From contig JBIOWP010000029.1 of the NCBI GenBank assembly GCA_044868695.1, positions 1 to 37,058 of the forward strand: a stretch of 37,058 bases of DNA. Reading direction: 5' to 3'. Position 1 is the first letter of the stretch, and every line of letters begins with the position of its first letter. Position numbers and translations under genes: made by a program. A model generated the notes under the pieces. It was given only the letters and a program-made list of their open reading frames with translations, was not told the DNA's origin and searched no databases. Below, piece by piece: positions 969 through 35,663 of this stretch. The stretch is from a bacterium. GTDB taxonomy: Bacteria > Sysuimicrobiota > Sysuimicrobiia > Sysuimicrobiales > Kaftiobacteriaceae.

Positions 969-1047
969 CAAGGAAAAAGGAAGAGGGAAGAGGGAAGAGG
1001 GAAATACCATGGGGCCTTCTTCCCTCTTCCGTCTTCCCTTGTCCTTG
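969..1047. repeat. Heptamer (GGAAGAG/CTCTTCC) inverted-repeat hairpin, 'empty' copy
   Basis: Left arm 969-1001 CAAGGAAAAAGGAAGAGGGAAGAGGGAAGAGGG; right arm 1015-1047 CCTTCTTCCCTCTTCCGTCTTCCCTTGTCCTTG; 29/33 complementary with a 13-nt loop. It ends 3 nt before the SD (AAGGAGG, 1051-1057). Confidence 0.9.
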
Positions 1048-1063
1048 ACCAAGGAGGTTCATA

Positions 1064-1525
1064 ATGCAGATCCGGGGGAGATCCATCCCGAATGTGTGGC
1101 TGGCCGGAAGCGCGGGTGTCCTGCTGCTCGTGATTATCGCCCTTGTCGCGTGGCAGGGCGGGTCCGTGCTGGGCCAGTCGTTTACGGTCGGTTACGTGGA
1201 CATGCAGCGTGCACTCGACAACCATCCCCGGAAGGCCTCATCCGAGCGGGCCCTGCAGGAGTTCTTCCAGGCGAAGCAGCGCGAATTCCAGCAGCGCGCC
1301 AAGAGCCTGACCCCTGTACAGCGTCAGGAGCTGGACCGGCAGCTGCAGCAGGAATTCATCCAGAAGCGTGAGGAGCTGCTCAGCGGGCTGGACAAGGACA
1401 TCCGCGTGGCCGTGGAGACGGTGAGCCGGGACCGCGGGGTCGGGATTGTGCTCGATCGCACGGTGGTGCTCTACGGCGGGATCGATCTGACCGACGCGGT
1501 GATCGCGCAGCTGGCCGCCAAGTAG
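1064..1525 (+). CDS. skp: OmpH/Skp family periplasmic chaperone
   Basis: SD AAGGAGG; N-terminal hydrophobic segment; motifs VGYVDMQRAL and VLDRTVVLYGGIDLTDAVIAQL flank a coiled coil. Confidence 0.88.
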   Translation: MQIRGRSIPNVWLAGSAGVLLLVIIALVAWQGGSVLGQSFTVGYVDMQRALDNHPRKASSERALQEFFQAKQREFQQRAKSLTPVQRQELDRQLQQEFIQKREELLSGLDKDIRVAVETVSRDRGVGIVLDRTVVLYGGIDLTDAVIAQLAAK

Positions 1526-1527
1526 AC

Positions 1528-2652
1528 GTGTCAGGGAAGAAGCGGCCGGGCGTCCCCCGGCCGCGCCGCACAATAGTCTGGGTCGTCGGCGCCCTCGCGC
1601 TGGCCACGGGGCTGGCCGGGTGCCAGCGGCGTCAGGCCGCCCCGGTGCCGGAGACTCGCATTGGCGTCGTGGACCTGCAGGCGGTGACCCGCGCCCATCC
1701 CCGCTGGTCGGAGCTCGACGCCGTTGTGCGGCAGATCAACGATGTTCAGGCCCAGCTGGCGTCTCTGCCGCCACTCCCCGCCGTGCTCGACCCCGATGTC
1801 CAGCGGCTGCTTGACGCGGAGGCGCAGCGGCTGCGCGCCGACGTGGAAAAGGAGCTGGAGTTTCTCCGGCAGGATGGGCGGAGACGGCTCGAAGCATTCG
1901 CCGACGAGCTGCGCGCCGAGCAAGAAGCGCGCCTGGCCCAGACCCGCCAGGACCTCGATGCGCAGGGCTCGCGGGAGATCGGGTCGACGCGCGACGCGCT
2001 GCGGGCGCAGCTGCGCGCCGCCGAGCAGGAGATCCGGGACGAGTACCGCTATCCGCTCCTCAACCTCCGCCTCCGCGCCGAGGTCGCCGGTCTCACGTCG
2101 GAAGATGAGGCCAAGCAGCTGAGCCAGCAGGCGCAGGCCCTGCAGGACGAGCGCGAACGCCGCATCCAGGCCAAGACGGAGGAACTCCAGCGCTCGTTTG
2201 CTGAGTTTCAGCGGGGCAAGGAGGCGGAGATCAACGCGAAACTGAAGGCGGCGCAGGAGGCGCTCCAGGCGGAGGCCGAGCAGCGCCTGGCGAGCCGGGA
2301 GCGGGAAACGCAGGCGGAGTTCGCCCGGGCGGCCGCCGAGATGGAAAAGACGTTTCGTGCCCGCCTGGAACGCCGGCGGATCCAGATGATGGAGACGGCG
2401 CAGGCCAAGTTGCTCGGACAGCAGGCGTCGAACCCGGAGAGCGGCGTGCAGCGGAGCCGGCGCCTGCGGGCCGAACTCGCTGCGCTGAACGAACAGCGTC
2501 TGCGGCTGGAAGACAGTATCCTCGCGGAGGTCAAGATCGAGATCGCCGCGCTGGCGCAGGAGCACCGGCTCGACGTGGTGTTGACGCGATACGTGGCCAA
2601 TCTCACCGGGATCGACATCACGGCGGACGTCGTGCACAAGTTGAAGCGATGA
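1528..2652 (+). CDS. Elongated OmpH/Skp-like lipoprotein with a long coiled-coil insertion
   Basis: Lipobox LAGC; Skp-like ends (IGVVDLQAV ... LDVVL...GIDITADVVHKL) separated by about 250 aa of heptad-rich Glu/Gln/Arg/Ala/Leu sequence. Confidence 0.75.
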   Translation: MSGKKRPGVPRPRRTIVWVVGALALATGLAGCQRRQAAPVPETRIGVVDLQAVTRAHPRWSELDAVVRQINDVQAQLASLPPLPAVLDPDVQRLLDAEAQRLRADVEKELEFLRQDGRRRLEAFADELRAEQEARLAQTRQDLDAQGSREIGSTRDALRAQLRAAEQEIRDEYRYPLLNLRLRAEVAGLTSEDEAKQLSQQAQALQDERERRIQAKTEELQRSFAEFQRGKEAEINAKLKAAQEALQAEAEQRLASRERETQAEFARAAAEMEKTFRARLERRRIQMMETAQAKLLGQQASNPESGVQRSRRLRAELAALNEQRLRLEDSILAEVKIEIAALAQEHRLDVVLTRYVANLTGIDITADVVHKLKR

Positions 2653-3047
2653 GACCGGGATTCGTGCTCGTGATCGCCCTGGCCGCGCTGGCGGCCACCG
2701 GGTGTGCTCCCAGGATTGGCGTCGTGGACTCGAAGCGCATCCTCAACGAGAGCGTCCTGGCGCTGTCCTACCAGAAACAACTCGACGACCGTGAGAAAGC
2801 GATGCTGACGGATCTCCAGCTGCTCAGCGGCCAGCTGAGCCGGGAGGATCTCGAAGCCCGCCGGCAGACGCACGTGCGCGAGCTGACGGCGTTCCGGAGA
2901 GACCTGGAGGGCAGGCTGAATGACCGGATCCGTGAGGCGGTCGCTGAGGTGGCGCGCCGGCGCCGGTTGCAGTTCGTGATCAAGAAGGAAGCGGCCAAAC
3001 TCGGCGGCGTCGACATCACCGATCAGGTGATCGAGAGGCTCAAGTAA
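2649..3047 (+). CDS. Short OmpH/Skp-like lipoprotein
   Basis: ATGA overlap with the previous gene; lipobox-like ATGC; IGVVDSKRIL and GGVDITDQVIERL motifs. Confidence 0.8.
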   Translation: MRPGFVLVIALAALAATGCAPRIGVVDSKRILNESVLALSYQKQLDDREKAMLTDLQLLSGQLSREDLEARRQTHVRELTAFRRDLEGRLNDRIREAVAEVARRRRLQFVIKKEAAKLGGVDITDQVIERLK

Positions 3048-4060
3048 TGAAACTGCGCGAGCTGGCCGAGGCGATCGGCGCGAGCGTTGCCGGAAACGGC
3101 GAGGTCGAGGTTTTAGAGGTCGCCGAAGTCGAACGCGCCGGTCCCGGGTCGCTGGTAATGGTGCGGACAGCGCGCCATCTCCCGCAGGCCGAGGCGAGCG
3201 GCGCGACCGCGCTGCTGCTGTCAGACGACCTTCCGCCGGGCATCAAGCCGGCCCTCCGGGCGCGCGATGTCCGGGTTGCGTTCGCGCGGGCCATCAGTCT
3301 GATGCATCCCGCCTCGCCCGCAACGCCGGGGATCCACCCCACGGCCGTCATCGGGAACCAGGCGCGCGTGGGCAAGACGGTCTCCGTTGGACCATACGCG
3401 GTGCTCGGCGACGGCTGCACGCTGGGCGAAGGTGTCGTGGTCATGGCCGGCTGTGTGCTGGGGCGCCAGGTGACGGTCGGCGACGGCAGCGTGCTCTATC
3501 CGCGCGTGGTGGTGTACGATCGCACCACGATCGGTCGCGGCGTGATCGTGCACGGTGGGGCGGTGCTCGGCAGCGACGGGTTTGGTTTTGCGGCCGACCA
3601 GGGACGCCACCTCAAGATCCCGCACATCGGCCGGGTCGTCATCGAGGATGACGTCGAGATTGGGGCCAACACCACGGTGGACCGGGCCACGCTGGGGGAG
3701 ACCCGGATCGGCGCCGGCACGAAGATCGACAACCTCGTCCAGATTGCTCATAACGTGCAGGTGGGGCGGGCCGCCGTCATCGTCGGGCAGACTGGGATCG
3801 CAGGGAGCGTCGTCATCGGCGATGGAGCCGTGCTGGCAGGCCAGGTGGGCGTGAGAGACCACGTCCGGATCGGGACGAGAGCCATGGTGCTGGCCCGTTC
3901 TGTCGTCACGAAAGACGTGCCGGACGGCGCCGTCGTCTCTGGCGACCCGGCTCGTCCCCACAGCGAGGTCCTCAAGCAACAGGCCGCCGTGCAGCGTTTG
4001 CCCGATTTGGTCGATCGCCTGGCGTCCCCACCACGCGGTCGCAAGACGCACCGCCGTTGA
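3047..4060 (+). CDS. lpxD: UDP-3-O-(3-hydroxyacyl)glucosamine N-acyltransferase LpxD
   Basis: Hexapeptide repeats; motifs GSDGFGF, GRVVIEDDVEIGANTTVDR and KIDNLVQIAHNV. Confidence 0.95.
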   Translation: MKLRELAEAIGASVAGNGEVEVLEVAEVERAGPGSLVMVRTARHLPQAEASGATALLLSDDLPPGIKPALRARDVRVAFARAISLMHPASPATPGIHPTAVIGNQARVGKTVSVGPYAVLGDGCTLGEGVVVMAGCVLGRQVTVGDGSVLYPRVVVYDRTTIGRGVIVHGGAVLGSDGFGFAADQGRHLKIPHIGRVVIEDDVEIGANTTVDRATLGETRIGAGTKIDNLVQIAHNVQVGRAAVIVGQTGIAGSVVIGDGAVLAGQVGVRDHVRIGTRAMVLARSVVTKDVPDGAVVSGDPARPHSEVLKQQAAVQRLPDLVDRLASPPRGRKTHRR

Positions 4061-4887: not shown

Positions 4888-4895
4888 GGCCGCTT

Positions 4896-4927
4896 GCAGG
4901 TTGGGGAGTTGACGAGGTGAAACGTTG
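4896..4927. repeat. Degenerate octamer tandem repeat at the lpxC-fabZ junction
   Basis: GCAGGTTG GGGAGTTG ACGAGGTG AAACGTTG, period 8. Resembles the repeat at 13136-13184. Confidence 0.45.
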
Positions 4928-4954
4928 AATGGTCAAAGTGCGCGAGGTGCGCTG

Positions 4955-5386
4955 ATGCAGTTAGGCCGTGAAGACATCGAACGGGTCATTCCCCACCGGC
5001 CGCCGTTCCTCTTCGTGGACCGGATCATCGAGCTCTCAGAGAACCGCATCGTCGGAGAGAAGGACGTGACGGGGGACGAGTGGTTCTTCGCCGGGCATTT
5101 CCCGGGTGAGCCGATCATGCCGGGTGTGCTGATCGTGGAAGCCATCGCCCAGACCGGCGCCTGTCTGGCCCTGCGGGCGCCCGAGTTTGCCGGACGGATC
5201 CCATACTTCGCCGGCATCGAGCGGATGCGTTTTCGCCGGCCGGTGATGCCGGGCGAGCGGCTGGTGATGGAGGCGTCGGTCAAATGGGTGCGCGGCCGGA
5301 TCGGCCGGGTGGAGGGGCGCGCCACGGTCGGCGGTGAGCTGGTGGCCGAAGGTGAGTTCACCTTTGCGGTGGCCGATGTCCGGTGA
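4955..5386 (+). CDS. fabZ: 3-hydroxyacyl-ACP dehydratase FabZ
   Basis: Motifs IPHRPPFLFVDRI, FAGHFPGEPIMPGVLIVEAIAQ and FRRPVMPG; ATG at 4955 follows GAGGTG. Confidence 0.96.
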   Translation: MQLGREDIERVIPHRPPFLFVDRIIELSENRIVGEKDVTGDEWFFAGHFPGEPIMPGVLIVEAIAQTGACLALRAPEFAGRIPYFAGIERMRFRRPVMPGERLVMEASVKWVRGRIGRVEGRATVGGELVAEGEFTFAVADVR

Positions 5387-6185: not shown

Positions 6186-7029
6186 TCTGCGTACCGAGGC
6201 GATCGGGCTCATCGCCGGCGGGGGCAGCCTGCCGCTGGTCCTGGCGAAGGCCGTAAAATCCCGCGGCCACCCGCTCGTCTGCCTGGCCCTTGAAGGCGCG
6301 GACCCGGTGCTGGACGGTCTGGCGGATCATGCCTACCACATCCGCTTTGGGCAGATGGAGGATGGCATCGCCGCGCTGAGGCGGCACGGAGCCACCCGCG
6401 TCCTGATGGTCGGGCGCGTGTCGCGGACAGACCTGCTGGAGCGCGGCGACCCGCTGTTCCGCCGCGTGCTTGCCGAGGCTCCCGACCGTCGCGATCAGAC
6501 CGTGTTCCGGCAGGCCGTCGCCCGGATGCGCGATCTCGGCATCCACGTGCTCAACCCCCTCGAATTCGCGCCTGATCTCGCCGTGGCCCCCGGCGTGCAC
6601 ACGCGCCGCGCGCCCAGCGATGAGGAGTGGGCCGACATCCGGCTCGGCATGCTGGTCGCGCGGGCGGCCGCCGCGCTCGACGTGGGACAGACCGTCGTGC
6701 TGAAGCGCGGGGTGATCCTCGCGGTCGAAGCCGCCGAAGGCACGGACGCGGCGATCCGGCGTGGCGCTGCGATGGCGGGAGGCGCCGTCGTCGTGAAGGC
6801 CGCGCGTCCGGCGCAGGATCCGCGTTTTGACCTGCCGGCCATCGGCGTCCAGACGATCACGCTGCTGGCGGAGGTCGGCGCCACTGCCCTGGCCGTCGAG
6901 GCCGGAAAGACCCTGCTGCTGGAGCGGCCCGAGGCGCTCGCCGGCGCGGATCGGGCCGGCATTGCCGTGGTGGGAGTCGAACTCGGGGAGTCGGGGGTCG
7001 GGAGTCAGGGGTCGACTCCAGTTCCGTAG
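6175..7029 (+). CDS. lpxI: UDP-2,3-diacylglucosamine pyrophosphatase LpxI
   Basis: Motifs IGLIAGGGSLP, DVGQTVV, AVEAAEGTDAAIRR and QDPRFDLPAIG; lies between lpxA and lpxB. Confidence 0.93.
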   Translation: MGNDLRTEAIGLIAGGGSLPLVLAKAVKSRGHPLVCLALEGADPVLDGLADHAYHIRFGQMEDGIAALRRHGATRVLMVGRVSRTDLLERGDPLFRRVLAEAPDRRDQTVFRQAVARMRDLGIHVLNPLEFAPDLAVAPGVHTRRAPSDEEWADIRLGMLVARAAAALDVGQTVVLKRGVILAVEAAEGTDAAIRRGAAMAGGAVVVKAARPAQDPRFDLPAIGVQTITLLAEVGATALAVEAGKTLLLERPEALAGADRAGIAVVGVELGESGVGSQGSTPVP

Positions 7030-7070
7030 GGGAGACGGCGTGCGCACGGACCGACCCCCGACCCCCGGCC
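6986..7070. repeat. Heptamer inverted-repeat pair (GGGRGTC / GACCCCC) spanning the lpxI stop and lpxB start
   Basis: GGGAGTC GGGGGTC GGGAGTC AGGGGTC at 6986-7013; CCGACCCCCGACCCCCGGCC at 7051-7070. Confidence 0.8.
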
Positions 7071-11442: not shown

Positions 11443-12161
11443 CGGCAGGGCGCGCCGGACCGGCTCCAGAGTTGTCCATCATCGTGCCGACGTACAATGA
11501 ACGGATGTCGCTGCCGGTCCTCGTGTCCAGACTCACGGACGTCGCGGGGGAGCTGGGCATGGAGGTGGTCGTCGTTGACGACGCCTCCCCCGACGGCACC
11601 GGCGCCCTGGCCGAGCACCTGGCGAAATCGTCGGCCGTCCCCATGACCGTGGTGCACCGGCAGTCCAAGGCCGGCTTGGCCTCGGCGGTGATCGCGGGGG
11701 CGGCCGCGGCGCGGGGCCGCGTGATCACGGTGATGGACGCGGATCTCTCGCATCCCCCAGAACTGCTGCCCGCGCTGGTGCAGGCGATCCGGGCCGGCGC
11801 CGATGTCGCCGTGGCGTCCCGATACGTGCCCGGTGGAGGCGTCGCATCCTGGCCGCTCGTCCGCCGTCTGGTGAGCCGCGCGGCGACGCGTGCGGCGCGT
11901 GCCGGACTGGGCGTGCGCGTGCGCGATCCGCTCTCCGGATACTTTGCCGTCCGACGCGAACTCCTCACCGGCGGCGGGTATGTGGGGCTGGGCTACAAGC
12001 TGCTGGTCGAAATCCTCGTGCGGCACCGAGGGCGCCCGGTGGTAGAGATTCCTTACCGGTTTGTGGACCGCCGGCACGGCCGCAGCAAGCTCGACGCCCG
12101 TGAGATCTGGGCGTTTTTGAGGTTGCTCGTGGCTCTGAAAGTTGGAAAGAGCAAACTGTGA
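11439..12161 (+). CDS. GT2 polyprenol-phosphate glycosyltransferase (Ppm1/DPM1-like)
   Basis: SIIVPTYNE, VVDDASPDGT, MDADLSHPPE, ASRYVPGG, DPLSGYF and EIPYRFVDRRHGRSKL; GTGA overlap with lptF/G. Confidence 0.88.
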   Translation: MTAGRAGPAPELSIIVPTYNERMSLPVLVSRLTDVAGELGMEVVVVDDASPDGTGALAEHLAKSSAVPMTVVHRQSKAGLASAVIAGAAAARGRVITVMDADLSHPPELLPALVQAIRAGADVAVASRYVPGGGVASWPLVRRLVSRAATRAARAGLGVRVRDPLSGYFAVRRELLTGGGYVGLGYKLLVEILVRHRGRPVVEIPYRFVDRRHGRSKLDAREIWAFLRLLVALKVGKSKL

Positions 12162-12214
12162 TCCCGCCCAGGATCACGGAGGGTAAGTCTACGCTTCTCC
12201 AACAGTTCTAGGCG

Positions 12215-13141
12215 ATGGAACTCGGAGTCCTGCTCATCCCAGTCCTGATCGCGTTGAGCGGTGGGATTGCGCTCGTCGGGAACGCGGTAGGCCGCGGCAT
12301 CGGCCGGCGGCGGCTGTCCTTGTTCGGATTGCGCCCCCGGCATACGGCGCAGGTGATCACCGTCGCCACCGGGATGCTCATCACGATCACCACGCTGGTC
12401 GTCGTCCTGCTACTGTCGGCCGAGGCGCGCGTCGCTCTGTTCCGGTTGAACGAAGTGCTGCGGGAGACGAAGCGGCTTGAGGCGGAGATCCGCAGGCAGG
12501 AAGACCGGTTGAAGCAGCTGGCGCTGGGCGACATCGCGTACCTCAACAATCAGGAAGTGGTGCGGGACGTCATTGACGGCCGGCAGGCGTCCGGCGCCGT
12601 CAGCCAGCGGGTGCGGGCGGCGGTGGAACGCGCCGGTGAGATTGCCCGCGAGAACGGGATCGGGGCCGATACCCGCGGCGATCTGGTCGTGCTGTCTCCC
12701 CCGCGGGCGACGTGGGACGACATCGCGCACCTCATCGACCTGCGGGATACCGACACCGTGCTGCGGCTGGTCGCAAACCAGAACACGCTGAAGGGCGAGC
12801 CGCTCATGGTGTTTGTCCAGCTGTTTGACGACCGTCTGGTGTACCCGGCCGGCACCGTACTGGTCGAAGGCATTGTTGACGGCCGGCAGTCCCGCGAGGT
12901 CATCGGGCGCGAGTTGCTGCGCCTGGCCGATCAGTCGGCCCGGCTCGCCCGAGGACAGGTGCTGCCCGCGGCCTTCACGCTGGTGACCGCGGCGCCCTCG
13001 GCCCAGGTCGACATCGACGACCACCGCGCCGCGATCTCGCGGGTCCAGCGCGCGGGGCGTCAGGTGCTCGTGCAGGTCGTGGCCACTCGTGACATTCACA
13101 CCGTTGGACCACTGACGGTGTCGTTCCGCGTCCCCCGTTGA
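12215..13141 (+). CDS. DUF3084-like membrane protein
   Basis: N-terminal GGIALVGNAVGRGIGRRRLSLFGLRPRHTAQVITVATG matches the DUF3084 pattern as recalled; two TM helices then a coiled coil. Confidence 0.75.
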   Translation: MELGVLLIPVLIALSGGIALVGNAVGRGIGRRRLSLFGLRPRHTAQVITVATGMLITITTLVVVLLLSAEARVALFRLNEVLRETKRLEAEIRRQEDRLKQLALGDIAYLNNQEVVRDVIDGRQASGAVSQRVRAAVERAGEIARENGIGADTRGDLVVLSPPRATWDDIAHLIDLRDTDTVLRLVANQNTLKGEPLMVFVQLFDDRLVYPAGTVLVEGIVDGRQSREVIGRELLRLADQSARLARGQVLPAAFTLVTAAPSAQVDIDDHRAAISRVQRAGRQVLVQVVATRDIHTVGPLTVSFRVPR

Positions 13142-13184
13142 AGACGTTAAAACGTTGGATCGTTGGAATGTTGGAACGTCCAGG
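13136..13184. repeat. Octamer tandem repeat (CGTTGGAA-type)
   Basis: CGTTGAAGA CGTTAAAA CGTTGGAT CGTTGGAA TGTTGGAA CGTCCAGG, overlapping the DUF3084 stop codon. Confidence 0.8.
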
Positions 13185-13227
13185 CTTACGTGCGGAGGGG
13201 AAACCGGCTTGTTCGTGGAATATCGCG

Positions 13228-13405
13228 CTCCAAGTGGTGCGGGTGTAGGGAAGCCCGGTGCAATTCCGGCGCGGTCGCGCCGCTGTAACCGGTGAGCCCC
13301 TCTCCAACGATCGCCACTGAGCGGACCCGACCTGCCAGACGGCGGGCCGCTTGGGAAGGCCGGAGGGGAGCGATGAGCCGGAAGCCAGAAGACCTTCCCG
13401 TGCCA
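13228..13405 (+). ncRNA. Cobalamin (AdoCbl) riboswitch
   Basis: AGGGAAGCCCGGTGCAATTCCGG, CGCCGCTGTAA, GCCACTG, GGGAAGG and the B12-box AAGCCAGAAGACCT in canonical order, upstream of a TonB-dependent receptor. Boundaries approximate. Confidence 0.95.
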
Positions 13406-13445
13406 TAGACGCCACACGCCTTCGCGGCACAAGGAGGTGGGCGAT

Positions 13446-16039: not shown

Positions 16040-16073
16040 AGGGGAGAAGGAAGAGGGAAGAGGGAAGAAGGGA
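16040..16073. repeat. Left (purine) heptamer arm flanking the four-helix-bundle gene
   Basis: AGGGGAGAAGGAAGAGGGAAGAGGGAAGAAGGGA begins immediately after the tonB stop. Confidence 0.9.
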
Positions 16074-16099
16074 CAGCGGGAGGGCAGGCGGGTGGATGT

Positions 16100-16468
16100 T
16101 TGGAAGCCTTGGGATACAAGAGACTGGCTATTTGGCAAAGAGCCCATGCACTTCTCAGGGCGGTATTGAAGGCTTCCCAGAAATTTCCGCGGTCGGAAGA
16201 GGCAAGGATAGTCAGAACCCAACTGCTCAGGGCGGCAATGTCTGTCCCAGCAAATATCGTGGAAGGCTATGGGGGACAACGAGGGAAGTCGTTCACGCGA
16301 TATCTAAACCTTTCGAGAGGTTCCGCATGGGAAGCAGACTATTGGATCCTCCTCGCTGAGGAACTTAAGGCGATTGACCGGGCCACCTATGAGGAAGTGC
16401 ACGGGCTGTGCCATGAAGTCATCGCAATGCTGACTTCCGCGATCGAAAAGGCAAGGACGATAGAGTAG
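16100..16468 (+). CDS. Four-helix-bundle protein (23S rRNA IVP / bAvd-like family)
   Basis: 122 aa with YKRLAIWQRA, FPRSEE, QLLRAAMSVPANIVEG, FTRYLNLSRGSAWE and EVIAML. More AT-rich, with AGA/ATA/GAA codons unlike its neighbours; TTG start. Confidence 0.9.
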   Translation: MEALGYKRLAIWQRAHALLRAVLKASQKFPRSEEARIVRTQLLRAAMSVPANIVEGYGGQRGKSFTRYLNLSRGSAWEADYWILLAEELKAIDRATYEEVHGLCHEVIAMLTSAIEKARTIE

Positions 16469-16956
16469 TGGACTTTCTCTCTTACTTCTTCCCTTTCCCC
16501 CTTTTCCTTCTTCCCTTTTCCCTCTTCCCTCTTCCCTGTCTCGTTATCATGGCCATCGATCCCGGTCGTGCCAAGAGCGGAGTGGTGGTCGCCGACGCGG
16601 CGGGAGGCGTTCTTACGATCCTGGAGCGCGGCGTGGTCCCCACCGCGGGCCTGGCCCCGCTCCTGCGGGAGTGGGGCAGCCGGCATGCGGTGACGCAGGT
16701 GGTCGTAGGGGACCGGACCGGAGGCGACGCCCTCCGCCGGATCCTTGTGGATGCACTGCCCGGCGTTCCCGTTGAAGCCGTCGGAGAGGCCCACACGACG
16801 TTGCTGGCCAGGCGCCGGTATTTCGCCGACCATCCACCCCGCGGATGGCGGCGTCTGCTCCCGCGCTCAATGCAGCTTCCCCCGGAGCCGTACGACGACT
16901 ACGCCGCGGTGGTGATTCTGGAGCGGTTCCTTGAGGGGAAGAGGCGACCTATATAA
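16468..16956 (+). CDS. YqgF/RuvX-like RNase H-fold nuclease; start either GTG 16468 (repeat-encoded tail) or ATG 16549
   Basis: IMAIDPGRAKSG, VVGDRTG, E-x-x-TTLLARRRYF and PPEPYDDYAAVVILERFL. Confidence 0.8.
   Translation: MDFLSYFFPFPLFLLPFSLFPLPCLVIMAIDPGRAKSGVVVADAAGGVLTILERGVVPTAGLAPLLREWGSRHAVTQVVVGDRTGGDALRRILVDALPGVPVEAVGEAHTTLLARRRYFADHPPRGWRRLLPRSMQLPPEPYDDYAAVVILERFLEGKRRPI
16473..16537. repeat. Right (pyrimidine) heptamer arm flanking the four-helix-bundle gene
   Basis: Near-pure C/T tract ending TTCCTTCTTCCCTTTTCCCTCTTCCCTCTTCCCT. 16504-16537 is 30/34 complementary to 16040-16073, and three of the four differences would be G-U pairs. Confidence 0.9.
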
Positions 16957-20442: not shown

Positions 20443-20457
20443 TTCTGTGAAGCAGAT

Positions 20458-20488
20458 CCTTTAAGCCGGCCCCGTGAGGCCGGAAAGG
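20458..20488 (+). promoter_or_regulatory. PyrR-binding RNA stem-loop (anti-antiterminator)
   Basis: CCTTTAAGCCGGCCCCGTGAGGCCGGAAAGG matches the PyrR binding-loop pattern (CCUUUAA...GnGAGG...AAGG) directly upstream of pyrB. Confidence 0.85.
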
Positions 20489-20495
20489 CCATGCA

Positions 20496-20609
20496 CAAGG
20501 GAAAAAGGAAGAGGGAAGATGGAAGAGGGCAGGGGAGATTGCTCCTCTGCCGTTTGTGTTTTCTCCCTCTCCCTCTTCCTTCTTCCTTCTTCCCTCGTCC
20601 TTTTTCCCT
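20496..20609. repeat. Heptamer (GGAAGAG/CTCTTCC) inverted-repeat hairpin within the pyr leader
   Basis: Purine arm 20496-20529; pyrimidine arm 20562-20609 ending 1 nt before SD GGAGG (20611-20615). Confidence 0.9.
20528..20562 (+). terminator. Attenuator terminator of the pyr leader
   Basis: GGCAGGGGAG-ATTG-CTCCTCTGCC followed by GTTTGTGTTTT. Confidence 0.75.
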
Positions 20610-20621: not shown

Positions 20622-21596
20622 ATGCGCCGCCACCTGCTGGGCCTGCGCGAATTCGACGCCGGTCAGCTGCTCCAGCTCCTGGACCTGGCGGACCGTTGCG
20701 AACGGGGCGCCCCGGCGGGCGCGCTCGAAGGCCGGACGGTCGTTACCCTCTTCTACGAACCCAGCACCCGCACGGAGATCTCCTTCGAGCTGGCAGCCAA
20801 GCGGCTCGGCGCTGCCGTCATCCGTTGCGATGTCGACCGCAGCAGCGTGAAGAAGGGGGAGAGGTTCGTCGACACCGTTCAGACGCTGGAGGCGCTGGGC
20901 GCGGACGTGGTGGTGATCCGGCACCCCTCGGCCGGCGCGGCGCACCTGGCGAGCCGCTGGGTGCGCAGCGCGATCGTGAACGCGGGCGACGGCATGCATG
21001 AGCATCCCACCCAGGGCCTGGTCGACCTGCTCACCGTCCGCCAGCGCGCCGGACGCATCGCGGGCCTGCGGGTGGCGATCGTGGGCGATGTCATCCATTC
21101 CCGCGTGGCGCGCTCCGCCCTGTGGGGCTTCACCATGCTGGGGGCCGCTGTCACTCTGGTTGGTCCGTCGACGCTGCTTCCTTCTTCCTTCTTCCCTTTT
21201 CCTTTGTCGGTGGCAATGACGTCGTCGCTTGAGGAAGGTCTCGAAGGCGCCGACGTTGTGATCGCGCTGCGGATGCAGCTGGAGCGCCAGCAGCACGGCC
21301 ACGTGCCGTCGTTGGGCGAGTATGCGCGGATGTACGCGATCACGCCGCAGACGCTGGCGCTGGCGCGGCCCGGCGCGCTGTTGATGCACCCCGGCCCGAT
21401 GAACCTCGGCGTGGAACTGTCGGCGGATGCTGCGTACGGACTGCAGTCCACCGTCCACCAGCAGGTCCACAACGGCGTGGCGGTGCGGATGGCGGTACTG
21501 CTGTGGTGCCTGGGACTCGATAAGATTTCGGAAACGGGGAACGCGGGAACGCGGGAACGCGAAACTGTCCCGGCAATGATCGGGGACAAGGAATAG
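20622..21596 (+). CDS. pyrB: Aspartate carbamoyltransferase catalytic subunit
   Basis: FYEPSTRT, SSVKKGE, NAGDGMHEHPTQ, HSRVARS, RMQLER and MHPGP; SD GGAGG 6 nt before ATG 20622. Confidence 0.95.
   Translation: MRRHLLGLREFDAGQLLQLLDLADRCERGAPAGALEGRTVVTLFYEPSTRTEISFELAAKRLGAAVIRCDVDRSSVKKGERFVDTVQTLEALGADVVVIRHPSAGAAHLASRWVRSAIVNAGDGMHEHPTQGLVDLLTVRQRAGRIAGLRVAIVGDVIHSRVARSALWGFTMLGAAVTLVGPSTLLPSSFFPFPLSVAMTSSLEEGLEGADVVIALRMQLERQQHGHVPSLGEYARMYAITPQTLALARPGALLMHPGPMNLGVELSADAAYGLQSTVHQQVHNGVAVRMAVLLWCLGLDKISETGNAGTRERETVPAMIGDKE
21177..21206. repeat. Pyrimidine heptamer arm embedded in the pyrB coding sequence
   Basis: CTTCCTT CTTCCTT CTTCCCT TTTCCTT TG, encoding LPSSFFPFPL. Confidence 0.8.
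21530..21565. repeat. Octamer tandem repeat GGAACGCG x3 in the pyrB 3' end
   Basis: GGAAACGG GGAACGCG GGAACGCG GGAACGCG AAAC. Confidence 0.8.
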
Positions 21597-21598
21597 TC

Positions 21599-22930
21599 AT
21601 GGGTCTGCTGATCCGCGGAGGGCGCGTCGTCGACCCGGCCGGCGGGGGTGAGCGGGCCGCCGACGTGTTGCTCGAGGGCGAGCGCATCGCCGCCGTCGGG
21701 CCGGCACTCGCTCCCGCTGGGCATCAGGTGCTCGACGCGCAGGGCCTCGTCGTCGCGCCGGGATTGGTCGACATGCACGTCCACCTGCGCGATCCGGGGC
21801 AGACGCACAAGGAAGATATCGTCTCGGGCACCGCCGCGGCCGTGCGGGGCGGGTTCACGGCGGTCGCCTGCATGCCGAATACCGCACCGCCCCTCGATCA
21901 TCCCACGGTCATTGAGTACGTCCTCAGCCGCTCGGCGAAGACCGGGGCGTGCCGCGTCCATCCCATTGGGACCATCACCAAAGGCCGGGCTGGGCAAGAA
22001 TTGGCCCCGATCGCCGGCCTGGCGGCGGCCGGAGCGGTGGCGCTCTCTGACGACGGCGACGCCGTGGCCGATGCGGGTCTGCTGGGTCGGGCGATGCGGT
22101 ATGCCCGGCAGTTCAACCTCCCGCTGATCGAACACTGCGAAGATCGCGCCCTCAGCGACGGAGGCGTGATGCACGACGGTGGATGGTCCGCGATCCTGGG
22201 GCTCCGGGGAATCCCCTCGTCGAGCGAGGAGGTCGTCGTCGCCCGGGACCTCCTGCTGGCGGAAGCCACGGGTGCCCGGTTGCACATCGCGCACGTCAGC
22301 AGCGCCGGCAGCGTGCGGCTGATCCGTGAGGCTCGGCGGAGAGGCGTCCGGGTCACCGCCGAAGTCACCCCGCACCACCTCCTGCTCACCGAAGAGGCCG
22401 TGCGCGGGTTTGACACGAACGCCAAAATGAACCCGCCGCTGCGCGCGGCCGCTGACCGCTCGGCGCTGCTCGAAGGGCTCGCGGACGGGACGATCGACGT
22501 CATCGCGACCGACCACGCGCCCCACGCGCCTGAAGACAAACTCGTGGAGTTTGACCAGGCGCCGTTTGGTGTCGTCGGCCTGGAAACGGCGCTGGCTCTC
22601 GTGCTGACCCACCTGGTGCGTCCCGGCGTGCTGCCCTTGGCGGAGGCCCTGCGCCGCATGAGCACCCTTCCGGCGGACATCCTTGGGCTTCCCGGCGGCC
22701 GGCTGGAACCCGGTGCGCCCGCGGATGTGGTGCTGATCGATCCGGACCGCGCCTGGACTGCGGATCCGGCCTCCTTTGCGTCAAAGTCCCGCAACACCCC
22801 GTTCGCCGGATGGCCGCTGGTGGGGCAGCCGGTGCTGACGATCGTCGCGGGGGAGATCAAGTACGACGAACGTACGGGCACCGGGCACCGGGCGCCGGAT
22901 TTCGCCGGCGAGGAAGTGCGCGCCAGATGA
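21599..22930 (+). CDS. pyrC: Dihydroorotase (multifunctional-complex type)
   Basis: DMHVHLRDPG, CMPNT, EHCED, HIAHVS, KMNPPLR, IATDHAPH and SKSRNTPF. Confidence 0.95.
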   Translation: MGLLIRGGRVVDPAGGGERAADVLLEGERIAAVGPALAPAGHQVLDAQGLVVAPGLVDMHVHLRDPGQTHKEDIVSGTAAAVRGGFTAVACMPNTAPPLDHPTVIEYVLSRSAKTGACRVHPIGTITKGRAGQELAPIAGLAAAGAVALSDDGDAVADAGLLGRAMRYARQFNLPLIEHCEDRALSDGGVMHDGGWSAILGLRGIPSSSEEVVVARDLLLAEATGARLHIAHVSSAGSVRLIREARRRGVRVTAEVTPHHLLLTEEAVRGFDTNAKMNPPLRAAADRSALLEGLADGTIDVIATDHAPHAPEDKLVEFDQAPFGVVGLETALALVLTHLVRPGVLPLAEALRRMSTLPADILGLPGGRLEPGAPADVVLIDPDRAWTADPASFASKSRNTPFAGWPLVGQPVLTIVAGEIKYDERTGTGHRAPDFAGEEVRAR

Positions 22931-22988
22931 CGCAGAGCGCGTCACAGGGTGTGGTCCCGCGGAGCCCGGAGCCCGAGGCCCGGAGCCC
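22875..22988. repeat. Heptamer inverted-repeat pair spanning the pyrC/pyrD ATGA overlap
   Basis: CGGGCAC CGGGCAC CGGGCGC CGG at 22875-22898; CGGAGCC CGGAGCC CGAGGCC CGGAGCC C at 22960-22988. Confidence 0.78.
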
Positions 22989-27178: not shown

Positions 27179-28818
27179 CGAGGCAGGAGCGGATCGCTCT
27201 GAGCGATGGGACCAGGGACCAGGGACCAGGGACCAGAATCGACCCGTCCGCCTGGTCCCCGGTCCCCGGTCCCGGGTCCCGTCCCTTTGCGGTCGATACC
27301 GTCATCGTGCTTGACTTCGGAGCGCAGTACGCGCAACTGATCGCCCGCCGAGTTCGCGAGAGCAAAGTCTACAGTCTGATCCTGCCGTACGACGTCTCGT
27401 TCGACGAGCTCATGGCCCGCCGGCCGAAAGGGATCATCCTGTCCGGCGGACCCGCGAGCGTCTATGAGCCCGGCGCCCCGCGCTGCGACCCGAGGATCTT
27501 CGATGGCCAGATTCCGGTCCTGGGCATCTGCTACGGGATGCAGCTGATCGCCCACGCGCTGGGGGGGCAGACGGCGGCGGCGGGACACCGCGAGTACGGG
27601 CGGACCCGGCTGTTCGTCGACGACCGGGCTGATCTATTCAACGGGCTGGAGCCAAAGTTGATGTGTTGGATGAGTCACGGAGACTCCGTGGTCACACTCC
27701 CCGACGGGTTCACCGCTCTGGCGCGCACCGATCACAACCCGGTGGCCGCCATGGGCAACCGGGAACGCCGGCAGTACGGCGTGCAGTTCCATCCCGAGGT
27801 GACCCACACCCCGTGGGGTGCGCAGGTCCTGGACAACTTCCTCACCGGCGTCTGCGGATGCCGCCCGCAGTGGACGATGGGAGCCTTCATCGACACGCAG
27901 GTCGACGCGATCCGCCGGACGGTGAAGACCGCCCGTGCGCTCTGCGCCCTCTCCGGGGGCGTGGACTCGGCGGCGGCCGCCGCGCTGGTTCACCGCGCGA
28001 TCGGCGACCAGCTAACCTGCATTTTTGTCGACCACGGCCTGCTCCGGCGCGGCGAGCCCGAACAGGTCCTCCAGACCTTCCGCCATCACTTCCAGATCCC
28101 GCTGGTCCACGTCGACGCGCGGGCGCGTTTTGCGGATAGACTGACCGGCATCGCCGACCCGGAGCGCAAGCGCCGCGTCATCGGGGAAGAGTTCATCGCG
28201 GTGTTCGGCGAGCAGGCCCGGGCGCTCGGGACGGTGGACTTCCTAGTCCAGGGCACCCTCTACCCGGACGTCATCGAAAGCGGCACCCGCACGGCGGCGC
28301 GCATCAAGACCCACCACAATGTCGGGGGGCTCCCGGAGCACATGCAGTTCCGCCTCATCGAGCCGTTCCGCGAGCTCTTCAAAGACGAGGTGCGCGAAGT
28401 CGCCCGGCAGCTCGGGCTCCCCGATGAAATGGTCTGGCGGCATCCGTTTCCGGGGCCCGGCTTGGCCATCCGGGTGCTGGGCGAGGTCACGCCCGACCGC
28501 CTGGAAGTGGAGCGGGCCGCCGATGCCATTGTGGTAGAGGAGCTGCGCGCCGCCGGCCTCATGCGCACCGTCTGGCAGGGGTTCGCGGTGCTGCTGCCGG
28601 TGCATTCGGTGGGAGTCATGGGCGATGCCCGCACCTACGGCCACACCGTGGTCGTGCGTGTCGTTACCAGCCAGGACGGCATGACGGCAGACTGGGCCCG
28701 CCTGCCCGATGACCTGCTGGAACGGATCGCGAGCCGGATCACGCGTGAAATCCCCGGGATCACCCGCGTGGCGTACGACATCACCTCGAAACCCCCCGCA
28801 ACCATCGAGTGGGAATAG
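27175..28818 (+). CDS. guaA: GMP synthase (glutamine-hydrolysing) with a repeat-derived N-terminal insert
   Basis: [36 protein letters not shown] and [13 protein letters not shown]. Confidence 0.97.
27208..27280. repeat. Heptamer inverted-repeat hairpin (GGGACCA x4 / NGGTCCC x4) within the guaA 5' coding region
   Basis: GGGACCA x4 at 27208-27235; TGGTCCC CGGTCCC CGGTCCC GGGTCCC at 27253-27280. Confidence 0.92.
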
Positions 28819-28836
28819 TACACTGATCTTTGCGAC

Positions 28837-32910: not shown

Positions 32911-32964
32911 CAGCGCCGAGCGAGAGGGACGGCCCGGGACGCGGGCCCCCGCCTGAGGACCTCA

Positions 32965-33930
32965 GTGCTCCGCCACGTTGCCCGCCGTCTGCTACACCTG
33001 ATTCCCATGCTGCTGGGGATCACGATCATGTCTTTCGCCATTATCCAGCTATCGCCAGGCGACTTTCTCGCCGAGATCCGTCTCAATCCCGTGGTCTCCC
33101 AGGAGACCGTCGATCGCATGCGGGTGAGCTTTGGGTTGGATCGTCCCCTCTACATCCAGTACGTGCGCTGGCTGACCAACGTTATCCGAGGCGATTTCGG
33201 TTTCTCCTTCTCATACCACGTGCCGGTGCTCTGGTTGATTCAATCGCGGCTGGTCAACACGCTGCTCCTGAATGTCATTGCCCTGGCCGTGGCGTGGGCG
33301 ATCGCCATCCCGGTCGGAATTCACGCTGCCCGACACCAGTACACGGCGTCCGATAACCTGCTCTCATTTGCCTCCTATGTCGGGATCTCCACGCCAACGT
33401 TTTTCTCTGGACTGCTCCTCTTGTTCGTCGCGTTCAAGACCGGGTGGCTGCCGATCGGCGGGATGACCAGCCTGGACTACGACGTGCTGCCGTGGTTCGG
33501 AAAGGTCCTTGACGTCCTCCATCACCTGATCATTCCCGTGGTAGTCCTGGGGGTCCTGAGCGTGGCCGGACTGATGCGCCAAATGCGGGCGAACCTATTG
33601 GAGGTGCTGCGGCACGACTACGTCAAGACGGCGCGCGCCAAGGGGCTGACGGAGCGCGTCGTCGTCAACCGGCACGCGGTGCGGAACGCCATCAACCCAT
33701 TGATCACCATCTTCGGACTCGAGCTGGGCGGGCTGCTCAGCGGCTCGGCGATCCTGGAGAACGTGATCGGCTGGCCAGGGCTCGGCCAGCTGATCCTGGA
33801 GGCCGTGGTCCGCAAAGACCTCTACGTCGTGATGGGCAGTCTGGTCATCGGCGGTGTCACCCTCGTCATCGGCAATCTGATCGCCGACATCCTGCTGGCC
33901 TACAGCGATCCGCGCATCCGGTATGAGTAA
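32965..33930 (+). CDS. Peptide ABC transporter permease (OppB/DppB type)
   Basis: FGLDRPLYIQY, DYVKTARAKGL, ENVIGWPGLG and DPRIRY. Confidence 0.93.
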   Translation: MLRHVARRLLHLIPMLLGITIMSFAIIQLSPGDFLAEIRLNPVVSQETVDRMRVSFGLDRPLYIQYVRWLTNVIRGDFGFSFSYHVPVLWLIQSRLVNTLLLNVIALAVAWAIAIPVGIHAARHQYTASDNLLSFASYVGISTPTFFSGLLLLFVAFKTGWLPIGGMTSLDYDVLPWFGKVLDVLHHLIIPVVVLGVLSVAGLMRQMRANLLEVLRHDYVKTARAKGLTERVVVNRHAVRNAINPLITIFGLELGGLLSGSAILENVIGWPGLGQLILEAVVRKDLYVVMGSLVIGGVTLVIGNLIADILLAYSDPRIRYE

Positions 33931-35029
33931 GGGGGCCTCCATCCAGACCCCCGACACCCGGCACCTGACCCCGCGCCAGTTAGCCTGGCGCCAGCTCCGC
34001 CGGCACCGGCTGGCGGCCGCAGGGGGCGCCGTCCTCCTCGCGTTGTACGTGGTGGCGCTCTTTGCCGACTTCCTCGCGCCGTACTCCCTGGACTTCACCG
34101 ACCGGACAAAATTCTATCACCCGCCGGTCCTGCTTCACCTCCGGGACACGCAGGGCCGCTGGCACCTGCGGCCGTTCATCTACGACACCCGGCTCGTCGA
34201 TCCGGGGCTCCGCACGTTCACGCCCGACCCGGCGCGGACGTATCCCGTCCGCCTCTTCGTGCGCGGTGAGCCCTACCGGTTGTTGTGGCTCTTTCCCACG
34301 CGGATCCACCTGCTGGGTGTCGACGACCCCGCCCGGTTGTTCCTGTTGGGCAGCGACGCCTTCGGCCGGGACGTCCTCACGCGCATCCTCTATGGGAGCC
34401 GCGTCTCGCTGCTCGTGGGGTTGCTGGTGGTCGGAGTCACGATTCCCATCGGTATGATCTACGGCGGGGTCGCGGGGTATTTCGGCGGGTGGATCGACAA
34501 CCTCATGATGCGGCTGGCGGAGATTATCATCGCCTTCCCGTCGTTCTACCTGCTGCTCACGCTCAGCGCCGTCCTCCCGGCGTCGGTGGGGTGCGCGACG
34601 CGATTCTACCTCATCGTTGCGATCCTGAGTTTCATCGGCTGGGCGGGATTCGCACGGCTTATCCGGGGTGTCGTGCTGTCGCTCAAGCAGTTTGAGTTTG
34701 TGCTGGCGGCCAGGGCGATGGGGCAGGGTGACCTCCGGATCATCCTCCAGCACATCCTGCCCAACACCAGTTCTCTTGTGATTGTGGTGGCGACCCTCAC
34801 GATTCCCTCGGCCATCCTGGGAGAGTCCGCGCTGAGCTTTCTCGGCCTGGGTGTGCGGGAACCCTGCGCGAGCTGGGGGAACCTCCTGTCGGCCGGGGCC
34901 AACCTGATCAACCTCAACCGGTCGCCCTGGCTGCTCTTTCCTGGGGTGTTCATCATCGTCGCCGTGGTGGCGTACAACTTCCTGGGCGACGGGCTGCGCG
35001 ACGCCTTCGATCCACGCATGCGCACGTAA
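33923..35029 (+). CDS. Peptide ABC transporter permease (OppC/DppC type)
   Basis: LGSDAFGRDVLTRILYGSRVSL, EFVLAARAMG, HILPN, ESALSFLGLG and GDGLRDAFDP. Confidence 0.93.
   Translation: MSKGASIQTPDTRHLTPRQLAWRQLRRHRLAAAGGAVLLALYVVALFADFLAPYSLDFTDRTKFYHPPVLLHLRDTQGRWHLRPFIYDTRLVDPGLRTFTPDPARTYPVRLFVRGEPYRLLWLFPTRIHLLGVDDPARLFLLGSDAFGRDVLTRILYGSRVSLLVGLLVVGVTIPIGMIYGGVAGYFGGWIDNLMMRLAEIIIAFPSFYLLLTLSAVLPASVGCATRFYLIVAILSFIGWAGFARLIRGVVLSLKQFEFVLAARAMGQGDLRIILQHILPNTSSLVIVVATLTIPSAILGESALSFLGLGVREPCASWGNLLSAGANLINLNRSPWLLFPGVFIIVAVVAYNFLGDGLRDAFDPRMRT
33943..33972. repeat. Degenerate heptamer repeat in the permease N-terminus
   Basis: CCAGACC CCCGACA CCCGGCA CCTGACC CC, encoding QTPDTRHLTP. Confidence 0.6.
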
Positions 35030-35192
35030 CTCGAACACGCGTTTGCATATGTTCATTCCGATTCATGCCGATAGACCGTATACGGAAGTGAACCTTCGTA
35101 TACTGTGGTGCGTTCTGATAGAGGAGAAGGCATAACAGGGGCGTATTCTTCATCCACTTCGCCTTTAAGGTGCCTGGGAGGGGCAGGTCGCC

Positions 35193-35594
35193 ATGAGGGC
35201 CAACGCTACCGCTATTCCTCATGTTTCCTCGGCGGTGCTGACGGTTGTCCAGGTCGCCGAGTATCTCCAGGTCAACAAACTCACCGTCTACCGGTATATC
35301 CGCTCCGGCGAGCTGCCGGCCGTTCGCCTAGGCAGGGGATTGAGAGTCCTACAGGAGGACCTCGACCGATTCCTGGCTGCGCGGCGGGTTCCCGCAGCAG
35401 GTCCGGCCGCGGCTGCGACTGTCCGGGCCAAGCGTTCGCTCCCGCAGCCGATCTTCCAGGGTGCGACCCTTGCGGAGCGGTGGCCGCACACCGCGGATCC
35501 CCGCAGCACCCGGCGGACTCTGGAGTACCCGCAGCCGCTGGAAATGGCCCTCCAGAGCGGTCTGCTCAGCTGGATCGCCAGAGGTCAGCATTAG
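35193..35594 (+). CDS. Excisionase-family (HTH_17) DNA-binding protein
   Basis: LTVVQVAEYLQVNKLTVYRYIRSGELPAVRLGRGLRV; SD GGGAGG. Confidence 0.8.
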   Translation: MRANATAIPHVSSAVLTVVQVAEYLQVNKLTVYRYIRSGELPAVRLGRGLRVLQEDLDRFLAARRVPAAGPAAAATVRAKRSLPQPIFQGATLAERWPHTADPRSTRRTLEYPQPLEMALQSGLLSWIARGQH

Positions 35595-35663
35595 TGCGAT
35601 TTCGGATTGACGGTTGAGGATTTAAGCTGCGGGGTTGTGAGATCCGAAGTCCGCAATCCGCAA
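35595..35663. repeat. Heptamer inverted-repeat hairpin (CGGATT/AATCCG type)
   Basis: TGCGATT TCGGATT GACGGTT GAGGATT (35595-35622) and GATCCGA AGTCCGC AATCCGC AA (35641-35663), starting right after the HTH stop. Confidence 0.72.

Follow-up and report, generated by a model that had tools for sequence, protein, structure and literature searches.

Inverted repeat arms of 7- to 9-base units at gene ends and around IVP genes in a Kaftiobacteriaceae bacterium

Repeat arms in the window

The window, the whole 37,058-nt contig JBIOWP010000029.1 (contig C29 of genome G000, assembly GCA_044868695.1, Kaftiobacteriaceae), has a GC content of 0.67 and carries lipopolysaccharide, pyr, gua and opp operons. 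Short tandem arrays lie at many of its gene junctions, often as two complementary arms, and one pair of arms encloses a gene of the IVP (four-helix-bundle) family. The array family is genuine and non-random, and it belongs to the kind in which a repeat accompanies a gene. All listed features of the window are on the + strand:

970..1003, +, left arm, GGAAGAG unit, directly 3' of the stop of the first open reading frame
1015..1046, +, right complementary arm, stopping short of the ompH ribosome-binding site
4896..4927, +, very degenerate single 8-mer tract 5' of fabZ, chance-level
6986..7013, +, left arm, GGGRGTC unit, translated into the LpxI C-terminal tail
7051..7070, +, right arm of the GGGRGTC pair, may encode the LpxB N-terminus
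12161..12215, +, glycosyltransferase/DUF3084 junction, without array in the window
13141..13179, +, single arm, GTTGGAAC unit, at the DUF3084 stop and 5' of a cobalamin riboswitch
16040..16081, +, left arm of the IVP cassette, GGAAGAG unit, beginning at the tonB stop
16100..16468, +, IVP / four-helix-bundle gene, 122 aa (PF05635, TIGR02436)
16490..16537, +, right arm of the IVP cassette
20454..20564, +, PyrR-type attenuator of pyrB, binding loop and terminator (20528-20562), a host RNA inside the arms
20497..20535, +, left arm, GGAAGAG, 5' of the pyrB terminator
20562..20609, +, right arm, from the terminator U-tract to the pyrB ribosome-binding site
21174..21208, +, single pyrimidine arm within pyrB, in frame, variable loop
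21530..21565, +, single arm, GGGAACGC unit, PyrB C-terminal tail
22875..22898, +, left arm, GGGCACC unit, PyrC C-terminal tail
22960..22988, +, right arm, PyrD N-terminal extension
27208..27236, +, left arm, GGGACCA unit, GuaA N-terminal extension, hairpin z -6.2
27251..27281, +, right arm of the GGGACCA pair, one mismatch per unit against the left arm in the three outer units
33943..33972, +, single degenerate C-rich arm, OppC N-terminus, no hairpin (z 0.49)
35595..35663, +, GGATTGC-type pair 3' of the HTH_17 gene, right arm (35643-35663) clear, left arm decayed

An earlier note on this DNA had reported twelve tracts, and all twelve were found at the positions it gave. Eleven outscore all 3000 random 80-nt windows from the same contig. 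The tract at 4896-4927 is at chance level, with 5.2% of random windows scoring equally high and a folding z of 0.27. The paired architecture described for the family applies to seven tracts (969, 6986, 16040 around the IVP gene, 20496, 22875, 27208 and 35595) and not to the remaining five, four of which are single arms (13136, 21177, 21530 and 33943). The arm pair at 970..1046 folds into a hairpin with a z of -5.8. The 35595 tract has a folding z of -1.9 and is absent from the listing of inverted pairs.

Arms also lie in frame inside coding sequence, at the termini or in a loop of LpxI, PyrB, PyrC, PyrD, GuaA and OppC. The loop between the lpx arms contains the lpxI stop and a possible GTG start of lpxB; in the three g6 relatives this junction is short and has no arms. 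The glycosyltransferase/DUF3084 junction holds an IVP cassette with GTTG-type arms in G004, G005, G010 and G011, and the DUF3084-stop site (13141..13179) is occupied by full hairpins of several units in relatives. The variable loop of pyrB carries, in G005 and G015, a unit identical to that of the 21174..21208 arm. The N-terminal arm of PyrD ends at an identical host position in seven relatives, with different units. The window holds four of the six GGAAGAG elements of the genome. Local clustering of units is unsupported genome-wide (same-unit adjacency 19/96 against 14.0 expected, p 0.09).

The pyrB attenuator scores 36.8 bits against RF00515, under the gathering score of 54. Its binding loop and terminator are present without arms in G001, G006, G007, G012, G018 and G020. 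A conserved start codon follows directly after the binding loop in relatives and may open a leader peptide, and a PyrR-type binding loop is also found 5' of pyrD in G001, G004, G007, G019 and G021. The only Rfam match reaching its gathering score is a cobalamin riboswitch at 13200-13415, 5' of the TonB-dependent receptor gene (86 bits); the miRNA matches in the same scan are chance hairpin likenesses.

Number, placement and anatomy of the arrays

G000 is 95% complete as an assembly, and its 2520 genes were called with a codon model of our own. It contains 167 period-7 arrays (3 in an order-5 Markov control), 59 of period 8 (1 in the control) and 58 of period 9 (7 in the control), while counts for periods 5, 10, 11 and 13 are near the control. 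As the earlier note had proposed for the window, the arrays keep close to start and stop codons: 148 of the 226 merged period-7/8 arrays are within 20 nt of one, compared with a mean of 22.7 and a maximum of 42 in 200 random placements. Divergent junctions are avoided (3/217 divergent, 20/217 convergent). TAA is enriched among the stops directly 5' of arms (30/96 vs 427/2413), and arms within coding sequence preserve the reading frame.

Assignment to 11 unit families was possible for 196 of the 226 arrays, giving 163 elements: 90 pairs and 73 single arms. The two commonest units account for 42 and 35 of these. The loops of 85 pairs measure 6-113 nt; three pairs with loops of 351-425 nt hold IVP genes, and the two others are weak long-range pairings. 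The arms consist of about four units of 7, 8 or 9 bases, and at least 11 units coexist in the genome. Four units are found in 93 of 162 arms (81 pairs parsed into units), and four is also the mode among arms without a three-G run (19/41). A loose outer boundary, AAC-N-RC, is common to all unit families. AT-rich 9-mer hairpin families (about 20 arrays, for example G000:C115:31770-31898) stand outside the count of 163 elements.

The arms are oriented to transcription, have a fixed order and mismatch each other more than chance predicts. The purine arm precedes the pyrimidine arm in 88 of 90 pairs, and the two exceptions are the weak long-range pairings; in one 9-mer class the pyrimidine arm comes first. 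The polarity noted earlier thus stands as a fixed arm order, with the 9-mer class reversed. Its wording in terms of the sense strand is uninformative, since an inverted repeat presents the purine arm first on both strands. Genuine strand asymmetry is present within the units: the variable base of GGGACCN is A in 31/53 upstream-arm units and in 9/51 downstream-arm units (p 2e-5). Units are identical between the two arms of one element in 10.3% of cases, compared with 16.2 ± 1.7% across elements, and none of 2000 permutations was as low. Sense-strand mismatches show no wobble preference (40 G.U, 52 A.C). The mismatch pattern points to selection at the level of DNA rather than mRNA.

Three other accounts of the arms were rejected. 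Mirror copying of one arm from the other is contradicted by arms that match below chance, and selection for wobble on the sense strand by the lack of a G.U preference. Identity as MITEs (miniature inverted-repeat transposable elements) is contradicted by loops that are unique but for one case and by presence/absence sites with no clear target-site duplication. A 95-nt insertion in G015 with terminal inverted repeats and a CTAG duplication (L270 region vs L238:8240) is a MITE unrelated to the heptamer arms.

IVP genes are framed by arms

The window IVP gene scores 99.7 bits against PF05635 (cut-off 33.8) and 102.4 bits against TIGR02436 (cut-off 24), and its product matches PDB 2GSC, which has five chains, with an E value of 5e-10. 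Its GC content is 0.54, compared with 0.67 for the genome. The flanking arms are 86% complementary over 42 nt, and the IVP stop abuts a GTG in frame with ruvX. The tonB/ruvX junction holds the cassette in G000, G004 and G010 and is a bare overlap with no trace of it in G001, G005 and G008. Cassette flanks in the family are protein genes wherever they could be mapped, and the window gene, between tonB and ruvX, is not an intervening sequence inside a 23S rRNA gene.

Three of the four IVP genes of G000 are armed, each with a different unit. The fourth (L004, G000:C27:15513-15818) is armless, has host GC and falls in a clade of 11 rows that keeps to one fixed site, next to genes that we take to be lipA and ridA. 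This clade includes genomes without arrays and may represent a domesticated IVP.

A search of the whole family gave 57 matches, corresponding to 55 genes, and the 40 that score at least 60 on a rebuilt profile were taken as cassette-type. Arrays are present on both sides of 35 of these 40, inverted and with a matching unit in 34; five have one clear arm. None of the 15 weaker matches has arms on both sides. Among 78 IVP relatives from distant lineages, 74 have enough flank; 27 are armed on both sides (22 inverted with the same unit, compared with 0 of 65 control windows) and 28 on one side. Carriage by phages was rejected, a search of 50,697 phage records having given no match; 20 of 72,556 plasmid records matched, mostly from cyanobacteria.

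Similar inverted heptamer arms are carried by three of four Nostocales plasmid IVP genes. The earlier note had compared the arrays with the short tandemly repeated repetitive (STRR) heptamers of cyanobacteria, and the Nostocales arms make this likeness more than a resemblance. Its link between repeats and IVP is likewise borne out, physically (34/40) and across genomes, without extending to a single generating mechanism.

Elements are replaced at fixed junctions

One site may be filled, hairpin-only or bare, and the whole element is often swapped for one with another unit. The guaB/guaA junction illustrates this. It holds sister IVPs with different arms in G005 and G009 and hairpins of three unit types in G000, G003, G008, G017 and G021, and it is bare in g2, most of g7 and other families. 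The C150 site likewise has an IVP cassette in one genome and just a hairpin in another. While the unit varies, even at one junction across relatives, period and arm order are kept, as had been suggested from the window. A survey of unselected junctions indicates that sites are shared between genomes: 22/64 array junctions of G000 also have an array in an array-rich relative, compared with 77/437 of the others (odds 2.4, p 0.004). The unit differs at 17 of these 22. The loop resembled the junction of a relative in only 6/65 comparisons.

G011 and G015 diverge by 6.3% over 195 kb of aligned sequence. Of 51 array sites, 31 have the same unit in both genomes, 8 have different units (one of them a related unit) and 12 show a clear array in just one of the two (about three with low confidence). 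Rewriting affected 18/29 array junctions and 12/39 other long junctions (p 0.014), several of the latter containing weak arrays or other palindromic elements. In a single case, an IVP cassette at another site in G015 contains a near-identical copy of the G011 guaA/pcrA hairpin that takes in the loop and the pcrA start (17 nt).

IVPs from the same site are monophyletic (99/96, 99/100, 99/99), and some sisters are found at different sites. One junction holds unrelated IVPs in opposite orientation. The trees indicate that cassettes are inherited at their sites across genera and also have sisters elsewhere.

Arrays co-occur with IVP and RAYT genes

The comparison covers 41 genomes from about seven genera, so that kin are not independent. 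Genomes with at least 15 matches to one search pattern, which undercounts other units, were taken as array-rich. Arrays are nearly confined to genomes with armed IVP genes: a cassette-type IVP is present in 11/13 array-rich genomes and in 1/28 others. The earlier note had named, as grounds for refuting it, arrays equally frequent in GC-matched genomes without IVP genes; the comparison with relatives did not refute it, since those lacking a cassette-type IVP are almost array-free (27 of the 29 have at most five pattern matches). Array number does not scale with IVP number, a relation the note had proposed to check, among 12 IVP-positive genomes (rho 0.30, p 0.34). Genus g2, which is armless, nests among array-rich genera (support 0.94), suggesting that the arrays were lost there. 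The species tree was built with FastTree, and the short rows G002 and G033 are poorly placed in it.

Genes of the Y1_Tnp family, or RAYTs (transposases associated with repetitive extragenic palindromes, REPs), follow the same distribution, being present in 12/13 array-rich genomes, 3/28 others and 5/5 distant genomes with an armed IVP. Co-occurrence alone therefore cannot separate IVP from RAYT, and position does. Upstream of the 22 Y1_Tnp loci there are no periodic arms (the 3' flank is cut short in about half), and short palindromes of their own are found instead. Three genomes have Y1_Tnp and none of the arrays searched for. Both RAYT-like proteins of G000 come close to the cut-off of 80 bits for the RAYT model, scoring 76.7 and 65.9. 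The RAYT-like genes (L127, L129, L519-L538) have their own short palindromes, and the C2 copy has upstream of it a 15-base tandem repeat that is seen again on C158. G041 (0.9 Mb, armed IVP) has eight Y1_Tnp matches. The proposal of a single generating mechanism goes beyond these data: period and order are conserved, while RAYT co-varies equally, the period may be 7, 8 or 9, and number does not scale.

An origin from reverse transcriptase, telomerase-like or from a diversity-generating retroelement (DGR), was rejected, as reverse transcriptase exceeds the cut-off in 6/22 family genomes and in 2/13 array-rich ones. The cassettes are not DGRs, the reverse-transcriptase genes being on other contigs than the IVP genes and none lying beside a cassette. 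Six such genes lie near contig ends (L005-L009; C44, C32, C86, C100 and C47), four of them similar and about 630 aa long where complete.

A palindrome upstream of DNA-uptake genes

An 18-bp palindrome, ATRRCYCA-N2-TGRGYYAT, has 10 exact sites in G000 and 38 within two mismatches, compared with 5 in the control. We examined 28 of the 38, leaving aside five second copies of tandem pairs and five weak intragenic sites. Neighbouring genes include recA, ssb, radC, comEC, comF, yraN, comM and those for a GspH pilin, an Lhr-like helicase and an HhH-GPD glycosylase, as well as a LAGLIDADG gene, both RAYTs and the C157 IVP. Eight of the 28 sites lie 5' of genes for DNA uptake or processing (comEC, comF, comM, yraN, radC, ssb, recA and the GspH pilin). 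About half adjoin unrelated genes, several beside another short palindrome. The loci concerned are:

L136, palindrome at recA
L137, palindrome at ssb
L142, palindrome at radC
L151, palindrome at comEC
L149, palindrome at comF
L132, palindrome at yraN and comM

Many cassettes carry this palindrome of DNA-uptake and recombination genes. In relatives it is found in exact form 55-78 nt upstream of four IVP genes, and among the 42 exact sites in the 41 genomes some lie upstream of Y1_Tnp genes, six in number. About half of 28 IVP loci have a degenerate copy 5' of the gene. Cassettes that run with the operon, including that of the window, lack it. The association with IVP genes rests on exact matches and on flanks read by eye, and both the degenerate copies and the absences were read in the latter way. 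Judging from gene content, the palindrome probably marks a competence regulon.

The palindrome is not the LexA box of the SOS response. The 38 sites include neither of the lexA upstream regions, and both regions show boxes resembling CGAAC-N4-GTTYG, the form used here as LexA consensus. The two lexA-like genes of G000 are on C72 (L154) and C54 (L153). Candidate regulators adjoin some sites, namely a LytTR gene (L140) and an HTH-TPR gene (L131). Palindromes sometimes occur in tandem, 24 bp apart. At seven intergenic sites (L128, L133, L134, L135, L138, L139 and L147) a short GC-rich palindrome is followed by the 18-bp one with no mobile gene nearby, and these may be relics of a lost gene. The LAGLIDADG endonuclease gene L141 (G000:C109:11607-12119) is preceded by the 18-bp palindrome.

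Discussion

Particular sequences define the STRR classes of cyanobacteria. The units of G000 appear to differ from these and include 8- and 9-mers, while both consist of degenerate heptamers that pair as a hairpin. Such pairing is described, in the part of the source consulted, for the P6b heptanucleotide hairpin of a tRNA-Leu intron (PMC3488679). The heptamers as such are already published: the sections consulted of Rehm et al. 2015 (PMC4692102) describe GGGAATC and GGGGA(C/T)T repeats of Xanthomonas and Nostoc with no known function. As far as those sections go, they share with the G000 arrays a preference for four units, convergent inverted pairs, a G-rich arm after stops and rarity at divergent genes; they differ in that at least 11 units of 7, 8 and 9 bases coexist in G000, many of them unable to form a G-quadruplex (G4), and its sites turn over fast. 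Four-unit arrays near stops, often as convergent pairs, are a mark of these G4 heptamers, and G000 has them. Their unit with four G-tracts, GGGNATC/GGGGAYT, does not characterise the G000 arrays: 41/162 arms are without three-G units, and the window has GGAAGAG, GTTGGAAC and GGATTGC.

Within the sections examined, Rehm et al. 2015 name no link to IVP. MacGregor 2015 (PMC4679880), in the part consulted, describes TAACTGA repeats of Beggiatoaceae, which form intergenic sets of 2-6 copies near start codons with a patchy distribution; unlike the G000 arrays these are direct, almost never inverted, and of one unit. Helix bundle, IVS (intervening sequence) and S23 are absent as terms from its main text. 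Four-helix-bundle genes are merely listed in the part of PMC5524665 consulted. A literature search, with subscription journals mostly uncovered and the supplements of Rehm 2015 and MacGregor 2015 outside its scope, gave no paper on IVP with periodic inverted arms or on IVP with competence. The IVP-linked packaging of repeats is apparently not previously in print.

In some respects the arrays recall two other systems. REPs and REPINs comprise many short imperfect palindromes at gene ends, a few copies of which flank a gene on whose presence they all depend. The G000 arrays likewise combine gene-end palindromes with a few gene-flanking copies tied to the gene. Unlike in REP/REPIN systems, the flanked gene is not a transposase, the arms are tandem arrays of variable units and the loops are unique. 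The palindromes of the G000 RAYTs are others than the arms; array-rich genomes mostly have a RAYT (12/13), and no Y1 gene has the repeats upstream (0/22). The second likeness is to 23S rRNA intervening sequences with an open reading frame (S23p/IVP), in which a gene of the same protein family is held in a stem loop. The G000 cassettes lie outside rRNA and, differing also from Avd, have no reverse transcriptase beside them. Avd, a DGR accessory protein of the same family, is, according to the part consulted of its preprint, a pentamer that carries a positive charge as S23 proteins do, binds a stem-loop of RNA and is non-catalytic (bioRxiv 10.1101/2023.10.23.563531).

We consider it an even bet that the arrays are cis-acting arms of a DNA-level element that exists as a gene-carrying cassette and in gene-free forms and is coupled to competence. 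On our best reading the gene-carrying form consists of an arm, the IVP gene and the inverted arm, and the gene-free form comprises hairpins and single arms. A competent cell would make IVP, which may be an Avd-like, nucleic-acid-binding pentamer with no known catalytic role. The protein would bind the periodically mismatched stem on single-stranded DNA, by shape and not by sequence, and would favour, at tolerant junctions, the integration or replacement of arm pairs in short patches. Joining could be carried out by host RecA, by illegitimate joining or by a nuclease supplied in trans. The cassette would supply coupled stop and start signals that keep the neighbours expressed, and would thus behave as a tolerated passenger. 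A more far-reaching version, which we regard as doubtful, is that IVP with a host or trans-acting nuclease or polymerase is a competence-induced writer or swapper of array pairs with arbitrary units, which would frame a gene junction on both sides whether or not the IVP gene lies between them, and the common source of the heptamers of Nostoc, Xanthomonas, Bacteroidota and Patescibacteria.

A number of observations weigh against the competence-coupled element. Only one ectopic copy, which may be a misassembly, is found among 893 array flanks, and loops are otherwise unique. If foreign patches were imported, the flanking genes should show a divergence halo. What is seen is weak over the first 30 nt (0.094 vs 0.057), and past 60 nt there is none. 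Turnover at array junctions also involves other small palindromic elements, so that some rewriting may reflect a general tolerance of these junctions. The matching arms around the retained pyrB terminator are not explained by the model, and the excess of mismatches could be survivor bias against perfect palindromes. The window cassette itself has no 18-bp palindrome. RAYT genes share both distribution and palindrome with IVP and occur in all five distant armed-IVP genomes, and the genome counts derive from only about seven genera. The two commonest units flank no IVP in a 95%-complete assembly, and array number is uncoupled from IVP number. Finally, G003 and G021 have arrays without a strong IVP, and G018 has an armed IVP and few arrays (assemblies 78-87% complete).

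The arrays could instead arise by local slippage and be kept by selection as G-quadruplexes or mRNA hairpins of the host, IVP merely favouring such sites. This is in keeping with the four-unit GGGAATC arrays, inverted pairs and in vitro G4 formation reported in the consulted sections of Rehm et al. 2015 (PMC4692102), with the strong position bias and the avoidance of divergent junctions (3/217 vs 20/217), with sites common to genera above chance (22/64 vs 77/437) and with the mutually related units of the pyrB leader. We nevertheless think it unlikely. The four-unit mode persists without a three-G run (19/41), 9-mer classes have no G tracts, and a sense-strand G.U preference is missing. Slippage is unable to replace two arms, and the loop with them, by an unrelated unit between genomes that are about 94% identical. 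Relatives run identical operons with bare junctions, and arrays are lost together with IVP. That a RAYT, as an HUH transposase, cuts and rejoins the arms in trans, with IVP as accessory or passenger, strikes us as rather improbable. Y1_Tnp accompanies array-rich (12/13) and distant armed-IVP genomes (5/5), the 18-bp palindrome precedes RAYTs too (exactly before six Y1_Tnp genes), the G000 proteins approach the model cut-off (76.7 and 65.9 bits against 80) and the arms have a common boundary motif. Against this, Y1_Tnp loci have short palindromes of their own and no periodic arms upstream (0/22), and three genomes have Y1_Tnp without the searched arrays. Cognate RAYT-REP pairs are sequence-specific, and in G000 at least 11 units coexist with two RAYTs.

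Excision at the RNA level is a very unlikely explanation. The arms would pair and the IVP segment would be removed as in a 23S rRNA intervening sequence, with gene-free hairpins as processing sites. The name and intervening-sequence origin of PF05635, the 86% complementarity over 42 nt in the window and the in-operon cassettes that, by eye, lack a palindrome of their own are consistent with it. Many cassettes, on the other hand, are antisense or convergent to their neighbours and have their own promoter region, 73/163 elements are single arms, arms are often translated, the regular mismatches and A.C bias disfavour a continuous RNA helix, and unit replacement is left unexplained. Slimmer still is the chance that gene-free hairpins are only scars of IVP deletion from cassettes. 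The guaB/guaA and C150 sites, which hold a cassette in one genome and no more than a hairpin in another, suggest such scars, as do C145, where G000 retains the palindrome with a relic arm and an IVP is present in five relatives, and the 3/11 mappable IVP sites of relatives that carry arrays in G000 (base rate 5.9%, p 0.024). The other 8/11 have no array, five of them with gaps below 40 nt, and about 160 elements for 3 cassettes would need very high traffic, while cassettes persist across genera. Arms moreover enclose host terminators that exist armless in relatives; that of pyrB does so in six, so not every hairpin is a deletion scar.

Two gaps meet in the competence-coupled element: the excess of intergenic 7-base repeats in bacteria, to which Rehm 2015 assigned no role, and the IVP family, for which structures are known and function only within retroelements. 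Repeats and IVP are tied physically and across genomes, and at fixed junctions entire elements are exchanged over short spans of time. For annotation, our results are a warning that in such genomes many of the odd tails at N- and C-termini are translated arms. A possible trigger is the palindrome that IVP has in common with DNA-uptake genes, which gives a lead on the 7-base repeats of many bacteria.

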